DNA of 52,413 nt from Alphaproteobacteria bacterium (lineage in GTDB: Bacteria; Pseudomonadota; Alphaproteobacteria; UBA11073): the NCBI GenBank assembly GCA_013289145.1, contig JABDAM010000007.1:1-52413 (forward strand), in the 5' to 3' direction. The position numbers and the translations under genes are program-made. Below are positions 46,456 through 48,402 of the stretch, piece after piece. The notes beneath the pieces were generated by a model. The model did no database searches and was not told where the DNA came from. It saw nothing but the letters and a program-made list of their open reading frames with translations. Numbering within the stretch: the stretch's first letter is position 1; every line of letters starts with the position of its first letter.

Positions 46456-46510
46456 TTACGCAGCGGCCTGTTTTGCCGCCGCAATCTCCCGCGCCTTCTC
46501 CTCAATCAAC
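46456..46510 (-). pseudogene. Displaced duplicate of the ispG 3' end ([21 protein letters not shown])
   Basis: 46482-46510 is identical to 47304-47332 and runs in frame to a TAA. Confidence 0.8.
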
Positions 46511-46602
46511 TGCGCGAACTATTTTTCCAGTGGGATGAGTTTATCAGCGAGGGACACGGCGCAGAATTTTAATGCCCGGTTACAAAAATCCACCTAACAT
46601 TA

Positions 46603-47214
46603 CTAGGCAGAAGGAATATTTTGAGAGCCTTGGTCAGATTTGGGAATGAACTTTAATATTGAGAGATCAATATTGTGTGACTGTGCCGCTAATCGGATAT
46701 TTTCAATCACACCTGGCGCGAGTTTAAGTGTAAATTCAATCGGGACACCGTTGACGTTTTCGGGGCGATTCACAACACCATCAATTGCCGAAATGGCGAT
46801 GGTTTCCATGCCAGAATATTGCTTGGGCTCCATAACATAGGCCCATTTAGGATATTTGGAGGAAAAGTAATGAATATTGCCGTTCACATTAAACGCAGCG
46901 GATGTCCGGTCTTCCGGGTCAAGACCTTCGCCTATCCAAGTTAAGGTAATACCGACGGCTTGTTTGCCTTTGCATAGCATTCCGATTGAAATCAGCGGCG
47001 CTCCAAATTCGCTTTTTTGGTTCTTTAAAATAGGCGCATAAAAAGAAATTTCCCGATCAAAATCAGGCGGAAATGGATCGGATGGATCATCAGGGTGATT
47101 ATATTGACGAGTTTCACATGGAGCACCCGCAAAGTTTTTATTGGCGGTTTTTTGTAGAAATTCTAACCCGGCTGTGACCTCTCTGCGCAAGTCAATGTGA
47201 TCGGAATTAGTCAT
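46603..47214 (-). CDS. Hypothetical ORFan between the ispG direct repeats, 203 aa
   Basis: SD AAAGGA; promoter TTGAAA-18 nt-TAATCT. Confidence 0.7.
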   Translation of the reverse strand: MTNSDHIDLRREVTAGLEFLQKTANKNFAGAPCETRQYNHPDDPSDPFPPDFDREISFYAPILKNQKSEFGAPLISIGMLCKGKQAVGITLTWIGEGLDPEDRTSAAFNVNGNIHYFSSKYPKWAYVMEPKQYSGMETIAISAIDGVVNRPENVNGVPIEFTLKLAPGVIENIRLAAQSHNIDLSILKFIPKSDQGSQNIPSA

Positions 47215-47277
47215 TAGATATCCTTTATTTGTTAATAAGGGAGATTAGCACAACTTAAAGTGATTTTTCAAATTAAT

Positions 47278-48402
47278 TCAGGCGGCTTTTACTTGCGCGC
47301 TTTCAATCTCCCGCGCCTTCTCCTCAATCAACCCCACCACATGCTCCACGATATCCGCGTCTTTCAGGCGGTGGGCGGGGATGCCTTTCAAATAGACTTG
47401 GTGCGTTCCCGCGCCGCCGCCTGTAAATCCGATGTCGGTGAGTTTCGCTTCCCCCGGCCCGTTGACGACGCAGCCGATGATGGAGACGCTCATCGGCGTC
47501 GTGATGTGGGCGGTGCGTTCCTCAAGCGCGGCGACGGTTTTGATGACGTCGAATTGCTGGCGCGCGCAGGATGGGCAGGCGATGATATTCACGCCGCGCG
47601 AGCGCAGGCCGAGGGATTTTAACATATCAAAGCCCGCGTAAACTTCTTCCACCGGATCGGCGGAGAGCGAGACGCGGATCGTATCGCCGATGCCGTCCCA
47701 GAGCAGTGTGCCCAGGCCGATGGATGATTTAATCGTGCCGGTGCGCAGGCCGCCGGCCTCGGTGATGCCCAGGTGCAGCGGGTAATCGCATTGCTGCGCG
47801 AGCAGGCGGTAGGACGCGACGGCGAGGAAAACGTCGGAGGCTTTCACGCTGATTTTGAAATTGTGGAAATCTTCGTCTTGCAAATGTTTGGCGTGGCCCA
47901 GCGCGGATTCCACCAGGCCTTCGGGGCAAGGCTCGCCATATTTTTCCTGGATGTATTTTTCGAGGCTGCCGCCGTTCACGCCGATGCGGATGGAGCAATT
48001 GTGGTCCCGCGCGGCCTTCACGATTTCGCGCACGCGGTCCTGGCCGCCGATATTGCCGGGGTTAATGCGCAGGCATGCCGCGCCGCTCTCCGCCGCCTCA
48101 ATACCACGCCGGTAATGGAAATGAATGTCGGCCACGATAGGCACGGGGCTTTCCGCCACAATTTCTTTCAGCGCGCGCGAAGAATTTTCATCGGGGCACG
48201 ACACGCGCACAATATCCGCGCCCGCGACGGCGAGTTTTTGGATTTGTTCAATCGTCGCTTTGACGTCGGTGGTGAGCGTATTCGTCATCGACTGCACCGC
48301 AATCGGCGCGCCGCCGCCGACGGGCACGTTGCCCACCATCACCTGACGCGTCGCGCGGCGGTTGATAGTGCGATAGGGGCGGAGGTCTGTCAGGGCGGAC
48401 AT
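47278..48402 (-). CDS. ispG: HMBPP synthase (GcpE)
   Basis: [45 protein letters not shown]. Confidence 0.98.

Follow-up and report, generated by a model that had tools for sequence, protein, structure and literature searches.

The 3' end of ispG in the stretch of DNA analyzed here carries an 822-bp unit that is probably the scar of an additive recombination with slot DNA (ispG-ORF203-prfA) of a diverged relative. The stretch (the window; 52,413 bases) is the whole of contig C7 of a metagenome-assembled genome (MAG) of an alphaproteobacterium, here termed G000, which comprises 1.418 Mb in 60 contigs and has a completeness of 69.85% and a contamination of 0.05%. The unit is bracketed by a perfect 29-bp direct repeat (46482-46510 and 47304-47332) and contains a replacement end of ispG, a cargo open reading frame (ORF) of 203 amino acids (aa), namely, ORF203, and a relic of the 5' end of prfA, the gene that follows ispG in a relative of the same genus. 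This relic, termed prfA', is the one distinctive merit of the locus: given an ancestral ispG|prfA junction of just 9 nt, each end of the DNA that came in can be located to the exact base, one in the ispG tail and the other at prfA codon 16. The scar is clean, yet it represents a mode of bacterial gene addition that has already been described.

The 822-bp unit and the ancestral ispG-prfA junction

The 29-mer occurs exactly twice in the window, with no mismatch between the copies (29/29 positions identical), and two matches were obtained in 0 of 100 dinucleotide-preserving shuffles. An earlier reading of the window, made from the letters alone and referred to below as the sequence-only reading, had placed the repeat at these positions and had described two alternative ispG endings, both of which we recovered. 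In the orientation of ispG, the features are arranged in the order ispG, first copy of the 29-mer, a tail with its stop codon (tail A), 63 nt, ORF203, 43 nt, the 16 codons of prfA', second copy of the 29-mer, another tail with its stop codon (tail B), a hairpin resembling repetitive extragenic palindromes (REP-like), four ORFs on the opposite strand, and native prfA.

ispG (GcpE; 47278..48402, minus strand) is an intact gene of 374 aa that matches the Pfam family GcpE over residues 18-360 (E = 6.4e-143) and shares 89% aa identity with ispG of G001, a genome of the same genus. The first repeat copy (47304..47332, minus strand) lies within the gene, covers codons L357-I365 plus the first base of codon 366, and encodes LIEEKAREI in the ispG frame. 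It is followed by tail A, i.e., the last 8 codons and the stop (47278-47303, minus strand), which would derive from the inserted piece. The replacement leaves the gene intact, as it affects residues past the conserved domain, which ends at residue 360; the tail that follows ...EI is freely variable in both length and sequence among relatives (29 of 29 examined). A spacer of 63 nt (47215..47277, minus strand), with AAGGA 7-8 nt before the ATG, separates the ispG stop from ORF203 (46603..47214, minus strand), which is co-oriented with ispG and has a GC content of about 0.42-0.45. In the spacer of 43 nt that comes next (46560..46602, minus strand), the ORF203 stop is immediately followed by a hairpin and T-run resembling a terminator (46611-46589, minus strand); this assignment is weak, since the same scan returned 2 terminator-like sites in total versus a shuffle mean of 1.7. 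The promoter that the sequence-only reading had placed before ORF203 was not recovered, as a sigma-70 consensus scan of 46300-47450 returned 0 promoter-like sites versus a shuffle mean of 2.0. Judging from the arrangement of the genes, transcription of ORF203 by read-through from ispG is plausible.

The description of ORF203 as an ORFan held: it matches no Pfam family and is present in 1 of 41 genomes, namely, G000 itself. In a word-indexed search of 5.8e9 protein clusters, it retrieved only itself among 58 candidates. A HMMER search against 1.8e9 representatives returned three weak matches (E = 1.9e-5 to 4.1e-4) to proteins with Ig-like repeats, and these are too weak to name ORF203 as a member of a bacterial Ig-like-repeat family. 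The AF2 single-sequence model had a mean pLDDT of 36 and was unusable, and the Atlas search was uninformative (feature matches of ≤0.81; structure TM of ≤0.44). We found no mobility gene in or beside the 822-bp unit, the sole ORF of which is ORF203, in agreement with its earlier description as integrase free.

The far end of the unit consists of prfA' (46510..46557, minus strand), which the sequence-only reading had overlooked. It begins at a GTG start codon, comprises prfA codons 1-16 with an in-frame TAG at codon 13, and then runs straight into the displaced ispG end with zero intervening bases, so that the joint lies at 46510/46511. The stretch 46511-46559 is 78% identical over 49 nt to the 5' end of native prfA (43796-43844), with E values of 5e-5 and 8e-5 in two local BLAST runs, and on the minus strand prfA' reads VSLADKLIPLEK*FAQ versus MSLADKLTALEKQFTQ in native prfA. 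The two differ at 12 of 48 nt, and the distance to prfA of G001 is similar (G001 compared by eye). One base is shared with certainty at the joint between prfA' and the 29-mer, and native prfA and ispG show an 8/9 match nearby (by eye). The real prfA (peptide chain release factor 1; 42778..43842, minus strand), identified by its own sequence and by 90% identity to the gene that follows ispG in G001, is intact with 354 codons and lies 2.7 kb beyond the relic. By its sequence, prfA' marks the far end of the inserted piece. The notion of a minimal self-contained cassette with an att site does not hold, since the far end is a prfA fragment fused to the displaced 29-mer. A local BLAST search of 42000-50500 revealed no relics of ispG, prfA, or rodZ ends beyond the two reported here.

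The displaced end begins with the second repeat copy (46482..46510, minus strand) and continues into tail B (46456..46481, minus strand), which reads AAAKQAAA followed by a TAA stop (46456-46458) and is still open in frame. Both tails look like genuine IspG tails. By codons compared by eye, tail B is nearer than tail A to the tails of G001 (EATKEVA, TAA) and of G002 (EAAKAI, TAA), the latter being a complete genome of the same family. Since tail B resembles these tails more closely and shares their TAA stop, the displaced end is to all appearances the resident ispG end, and tail A would have come with ORF203. The comparison of tails with relatives had been proposed in the sequence-only reading, and it thus points to the displaced end as native.

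The ancestral state is seen in G001, where rodZ, ispG, and prfA follow one another and the stop of ispG is separated from the start of prfA by 9 nt, with nothing inserted. At this junction, G000 contains 3.4 kb of lower-GC DNA (0.41-0.51 versus about 0.60 in ispG). Given the uninterrupted ispG|prfA order of G001, the insert's two ends can be assigned to opposite sides of a single ancestral junction. As an empty-site comparison, G001 provides a single ispG end, but the ispG DNA of the two genomes is only about 80% identical, and G001 matches the 29-mer at 22 of 29 positions.

The same slot is occupied in G002 (locus L039, G002:C1:1100000-1116500; reverse-complement coordinates 2857-4765), where it holds a 294-aa low-GC ORF, a 48-codon relic of the start of that genome's own prfA with a stop at codon 22, a pair of ORFs of 92 and 117 aa, and then the real prfA. 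By sequence resemblance, the pair looks like an antitoxin and a PIN toxin. This prfA 5' relic is independent of that of G000. Together, the slot contents and the genome's own prfA relic indicate that the ispG-prfA slot is a recurrent landing place, and gene-end relics are a recurrent by-product.

Downstream of the displaced end, the slot of G000 contains a REP-like palindrome (46420..46452), recognized by its fold and its other copies, and older content in the form of four lower-GC ORFs on the plus strand (43972..46419; individually, 43972..44622, 44686..45456, 45535..45732, and 45829..46419). These four ORFs are missing from G001, and those scanned belong to no Pfam family (the 65-aa ORF was left out of the scan). 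The palindrome, already noted in the sequence-only reading, has an 8-bp GC-rich stem (46425-46432/46437-46444) with a 4-nt loop and a minimum free energy of -19.5 kcal/mol over a 61-nt stretch. It belongs to a small family of dispersed repeats, of which the genome holds 5 other short matches, located on contigs C6 (e.g., C6:1536-1576), C18, and C3. A related sequence containing GGGATCCCG is found after the displaced end of a 317-aa gene on contig C1. On the other side of ispG, the gap to rodZ holds a 174-aa ORF (48525-49049, plus strand) with a GC content of 0.39 and a P-loop-like GFPCVGKST near its N terminus. It matches no Pfam family at an E value of 0.01, and no relic of a rodZ or ispG end was found around it; in G001, the corresponding gap is 43 nt and empty.

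Displaced gene ends elsewhere in the genome

To scan for duplicated gene ends, as the sequence-only reading had proposed, all 60 contigs were subjected to a local self-BLAST (12-kb windows, plus strand, E ≤1e-3), which returned 101 rows, including overlap duplicates. Most rows corresponded to intragenic or paralogue repeats, and the loci described next were retained after inspection. The scar at ispG has counterparts in this genome, since displaced ends around lower-GC cargo were also seen at one tRNA and at no fewer than five other gene termini. Across the at least seven termini of G000, the repeats are 29-108 bp long and 81-100% identical. (i) At the 3' end of the 317-aa gene upstream of pgk (contig C1), the repeat spans 108 bp at 86% identity, its first 26 bp match perfectly, and it encloses a 123-aa ORF with a GC content of 0.39. 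In G001, this gene and pgk are 15 nt apart, and the remnant in G000 is nearer to G001 at two residues. (ii) The 3' end of fumC is followed by two stacked remnants (C3:50661-53103; L125), both of which read QPEKMVRSA-stop with only synonymous differences there. The cargo is made up of a ParE-type pair (Pfam ParE_toxin, E = 1.5e-15) together with two ORFs that are paralogues of each other (42% identity, E = 9e-69), and fumC of G001 lies 6 nt from its neighbor. (iii) A response regulator on C21 has 39 bp of its 3' end repeated at 92%, with a 488-aa ankyrin-repeat gene as cargo. (iv) A less clean case is the 3' region of ftsK on C9 (46 bp at 87%), with a DUF2157 gene and a 131-aa ORF. (v) At nadA on C1, it is the 5' end that is repeated (46 bp at 83%), and the cargo consists of three ORFs. 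(vi) The tRNA-Arg(ACG) on C17 (8509-8584; L126, to 10700) has a 44-bp remnant of its 3' end at 89% identity, at a distance of 2.1 kb on the downstream side. Between the tRNA and the remnant lies one ORF of 625 aa, which matches no Pfam family, and there is no integrase.

The live and displaced ends were compared codon by codon. Among the differing codons, 8 of 14 were synonymous in the 317-aa gene, 6 of 10 in fumC remnant 1, 6 of 8 in fumC remnant 2, and 3 of 3 in the response regulator, i.e., 23 of 35 in the four comparisons. Random changes would be expected to be synonymous in roughly one quarter of cases. These four comparisons fit a history in which the ends would have evolved as working gene ends in other lineages and were then stacked. 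No such excess was seen in prfA' (4 of 9 differing codons synonymous) or in the nadA relic (3 of 9).

Among the other rows, the candidate pairs C18 18831/20385 and C3 32812/33626 proved to be terminator hairpins, and C14 25244/28306 is a low-complexity repeat. Six candidates, namely, C29 13248/14275, C9 24644/25455, C12, C10 1632/9464, C21 11354/16857, and C20 13732/17413, were left uninspected. On contig C8 (18837-19869; L127), a complete 5S rRNA (Rfam, 87 bits) and a 247-aa ORF with a GC content of 0.37 are followed by a partial 5S copy (19793-19869) that matches the first ~78 nt at 82%. It was rejected as an end-restoring case, since the extra copy is the 5' part, located downstream, and no gene end is restored. 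A search of genome_contigs for a locus related to the ParE-type toxin of the fumC slot gave 122 pattern matches, 0 of which were confirmed.

As a control, 80 alphaproteobacterial ispG loci (859,594 bases; a nonrandom sample) returned 23 rows. The 16 rows that were annotated included no clear case of a gene terminus paired with an intergenic remnant around an ORF, and those left unannotated were six tandem-repeat rows of L109 and a second row of L049. In the latter locus (7090-12238), from an unrelated uncultured alphaproteobacterium, a 2-kb block is duplicated at 94.5% identity; it begins with a small gene and a gene resembling porins, and a CRP-like regulator comes farther along. The block starts ~54 nt within the 3' end of ispG, at a point where ispG is overlapped by a convergent gene. 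We took this paralogous block, which covers the final ~54 nt of ispG, as the result of ordinary gene duplication and not as a scar.

Proposed course of events and its alternatives

The donor, the order of the junctions, the entry of the DNA, and the part played by RecA are reconstructed as follows. The donor would have been a diverged relative, at about genus-level distance, that carried ORF203 between ispG and prfA. The incoming piece would have consisted of the donor's last ispG codons, tail A, and ORF203 and would have extended to codon 16 of the donor's prfA. One junction would be homologous and would lie within or at the edge of the 29-mer. That the new tail is in frame at the exact homologous position is explained if homology guided this junction. 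The other junction would be illegitimate and would have joined codon 16 of the donor's prfA to codon 357 of the native ispG, at the upstream edge of the 29-mer. Since it would lie 29 bp upstream of the homologous junction, 29 bp would have been duplicated. The native end, with AAAKQAAA-stop, the REP hairpin, and the four older ORFs, would then have been shoved downstream as a dead remnant.

In its topology, this outcome would match the integration of an 822-bp circle, closed where prfA' meets ispG, by a single crossover of the RecA type (Campbell integration). The features of such an integration are seen at the locus, in that the homologous segment is duplicated on both sides and the circle-closure joint (46510/46511) lies inside the product. 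The same product could arise from a template switch or from a homology-facilitated illegitimate event between sister chromosomes. We prefer the single-crossover topology to classical homology-facilitated illegitimate recombination (HFIR) because HFIR pairs the insertion with a deletion, generally of recipient DNA about the size of the insert (PMC3240628), and nothing was lost here: the native end is retained together with its stop and the DNA downstream of it, and 29 bp are duplicated.

The geometry recognized in the sequence-only reading, that of a circle integrated into a gene end that it restores, is present in the repeat pair and the replacement tail, and recombination between the two 29-mers would, as had been stated, excise the unit and leave an intact ispG with the other tail. 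Of the two routes that had been offered, short-homology recombination fits; a recombinase acting in trans, for which the 8 PF00589 matches on other contigs would be candidates, is unlikely, given the host-gene fragment and the at least 7 target sequences. The locus can be regarded as a snapshot of ORFan arrival in the sense of how slot contents come from relatives, but not of how ORFans originate. The genome encodes recA (C1:88924-89709), and RecA may have been involved. As to the route of entry, no match to PF13547 (GTA_TIM), which would speak for delivery by a gene transfer agent, was found in this 70%-complete MAG, and a ComEC fragment lies at a contig end, neither result being decisive.

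Several points weigh against the proposed recombination with a relative's slot. (i) Neither a donor-type locus (ispG, tail A, ORF203, prfA) nor a same-species empty site was found. Exact searches for the 29-mer gave 0 matches in genome_contigs and 0 in metagenome_contigs, from which records near this genome were possibly excluded, and ORF203 has no homologue. (ii) So diverged a donor should differ inside the 29-mer; the lower copy may be native by construction or the donor may have matched by chance. (iii) A length of 29 bp lies at the lower limit for exchange by RecA. (iv) At the joint, the only microhomology that is certain is a single shared base. (v) prfA' has a stop codon, and like the nadA relic it lacks a synonymous excess. 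Some relics have thus undergone decay, and the event may date back further than one would guess from the perfect 29-mer. (vi) The other loci were delimited by a longest-ORF heuristic and not by a gene finder. (vii) The independent assembly described below consists of the contigs of a sole run, which may be the MAG's own source, and rare excised or empty forms would be below detection.

A more far-reaching version, which we regard as a long shot, is a mobility cycle that would depend on RecA only. Cargo would be welded to a short copy of a housekeeping-gene end that serves as an address label, and recombination between the repeats would release a small circle. Through a single crossover, this circle would enter relatives again at the matching address, so that slot alleles pile up and are not replaced. 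If true, this would be a main route by which the otherwise tight junctions of this reduced alphaproteobacterial lineage are filled with ORFans, ankyrin genes, and toxin-antitoxin pairs, and the decayed prfA' beside an intact 29-mer would be the birth scar of a long-circulating unit.

It is unlikely that the unit is a cis-mobilizable integrative element (CIME) that has the 29-mer as its att core and depends for its movement on a tyrosine recombinase from another part of the genome. A gene 3' end with perfect direct repeats and a replacement end shows the classical attL/attR geometry, G000 contains 8 PF00589 matches (contigs C52, C4, C2, C9, and C32), and a tRNA-Arg with a 3'-end remnant 2.1 kb off is present in the same genome. 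However, the distal arm is a fragment of the host's prfA that reads straight into the 29-mer and is not element specific. No third copy of the 29-mer was found in the genome or in the two public collections, and ORF203 is confined to G000. All 8 PF00589 matches are on other contigs, and there is no recombinase gene near the unit on its 52-kb contig. Finally, at least seven different termini with repeats spanning the range of lengths and identities given above are unexpected of one site-specific enzyme.

Equally doubtful is an origin by duplication first, in which slippage would have produced a tandem duplication of the ispG-end/prfA-start junction and foreign DNA would later have entered each copy, with no imported end. 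Tandem duplications at microhomologies are common, and a fusion of the prfA start with the ispG end is the exact product of duplicating the ancestral 9-nt junction. Yet copies of a duplication start out identical, whereas here a perfect 29-mer stands beside a relic that differs at 12 of 48 nt and the tails cannot be aligned. At 22% decay, 29 unchanged bases would be expected with p of about 0.001 (0.78^29). Because of this contrast between the relic and the adjacent 29-mer, which even G001 matches at only 22 of 29 positions, we consider that the difference was imported and not acquired by decay in place. The displaced ends of fumC, the response regulator, and the 317-aa gene, moreover, differ from the live ends mainly synonymously, unlike what is expected of decaying dead copies.

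An independent assembly was available from one public run, a soil metagenome with Logan contigs (k = 31) that is possibly the MAG's own source and shows presence only. A contig of 3310 bp spans 46420-49729 unbranched and takes in ispG and ORF203 along with the two 29-mers, the prfA' joint, and tail B; neither joints nor loose ends nor variant letters were reported in it. The k=31 graph breaks at the REP-like palindrome (46418-46449), which contains a 32-mer at a depth of 95. The 822-bp structure is not a strain-allele artifact: a chaining of two strain alleles of the ispG end, the refutation envisaged in the sequence-only reading, is highly improbable, because, despite the fragmentation and incompleteness of the MAG, the unequal Logan depths, and a 46447-46420 link that passes through the multicopy palindrome, this single nonbranching contig covers both 29-mers and the prfA'|29-mer joint, a 29-bp repeat is unable to mislead a k=31 graph, contamination is minimal, and synteny with G001 places ispG and prfA at one locus. 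The three Logan contigs that tile 42000-50500 have mean depths of 49.6 (42000-46447), 27.7 (46420-49729), and 12.1 (from 49731), and a C/T bubble is present at 49730. The unequal depths could reflect amplification bias or segments common to strains.

Comparison with known systems

Integrase islands in the 3' ends of tRNA and protein genes, and CIMEs, are flanked by direct repeats and restore the gene end from the insert. The unit at ispG resembles them in its flanking repeats, with identical 29-bp cores, and in the insert-supplied gene end, and it differs from them in having no integrase in or beside it, a host gene as distal arm, and many targets per genome.

The nearest described kind is insertion with long target duplication. 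Nobusato et al. (2000, Gene 259:99) are reportedly its source, and the original accounts of HFIR are said to be those of de Vries and Wackernagel (2002), Prudhomme et al. (2002), and Meier and Wackernagel (2003). In insertion with long target duplication, as outlined in PMC2853133, genes lie between long and variable target repeats, and other mobile elements are absent. A start or stop codon is often contained in the repeats, which leaves the target gene intact, and the inserts often differ in GC content. According to the same source, most cases come from naturally competent species, and the cargo consists of restriction-modification (RM) genes, which is tentatively tied to DNA breakage by RM systems. 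The unit at ispG is like these insertions (Furuta, Abe, and Kobayashi, 2010) in being a repeat-flanked insert of <20 kb without a mobility gene. Three differences from the account in PMC2853133 stand out: (i) the cargo is a 203-aa ORF and not RM genes; (ii) the screen described there used repeats of >30 bp, versus 29 bp here and 39-108 bp at the sister loci of G000; and (iii) a diverged allele stands in place of the tail after the repeat, and the other end of the incoming DNA is marked by a far-neighbor relic.

In Escherichia coli, linear DNA that evades degradation was found to be circularized and integrated by a recA-dependent single crossover, with partial duplication of the homologous locus (Amarir-Bouhram et al., 2011; PMC3240628). 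A screen for HFIR events brought these integrations to light: PCR revealed them in 56 of 60 clones, and the 14 that were sequenced had duplications of 109-950 bp (PMC3240628). The unit at ispG shares with them an insertion flanked by a partial duplication of the locus and, if a circle was involved, its nonhomologous closure. Unlike that system, which as described in PMC3240628 relied on plasmid constructs and identical homology of 109-950 bp, the present case would involve 29 bp and a diverged donor and is read from a natural scar.

HFIR combines one homologous anchor junction with one illegitimate junction that traps foreign DNA (summarized in PMC3240628 and PMC5361080). Our locus would likewise have one homologous and one illegitimate junction; unlike in HFIR as summarized there, 29 bp are duplicated and nothing is lost. 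For HFIR, microhomology of 3-10 bp is expected at the illegitimate joint, where a single shared base is certain here. For the orphan 3' ends of Rhs and contact-dependent inhibition (CDI) genes and for the type VI secretion (T6SS) effector-immunity arrays of Vibrio cholerae, an HFIR-like event has been proposed (Kirchberger et al., 2017; PMC5361080). In those arrays, as would have happened here, the old 3' end is pushed downstream by a newly arriving module whose upstream portion is conserved, and repeated events pile up the remnants, as at fumC. Unlike the arrays portrayed in that source, which consist of polymorphic toxins and immunity genes under selection, the targets here are housekeeping genes (ispG, fumC, nadA, and ftsK) and the remnants are dead. 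The displaced ispG end amounts to 9 codons of an IspG tail and the cargo belongs to no family; there is no toxin domain with an immunity gene.

Insertion with a duplicated target is thus already in print, and what this locus adds is a non-RM cargo and a relic of the far flank. The far-neighbor relic and the diverged tail point to general recombination with a relative's slot allele, and the non-RM cargo and the relic together argue that ordinary recombination of this kind suffices. The recurrence of the scar in this genome suggests that accessory genes in tight junctions are added beside old content and not swapped for it, which would explain the piles of ORFans between conserved genes.

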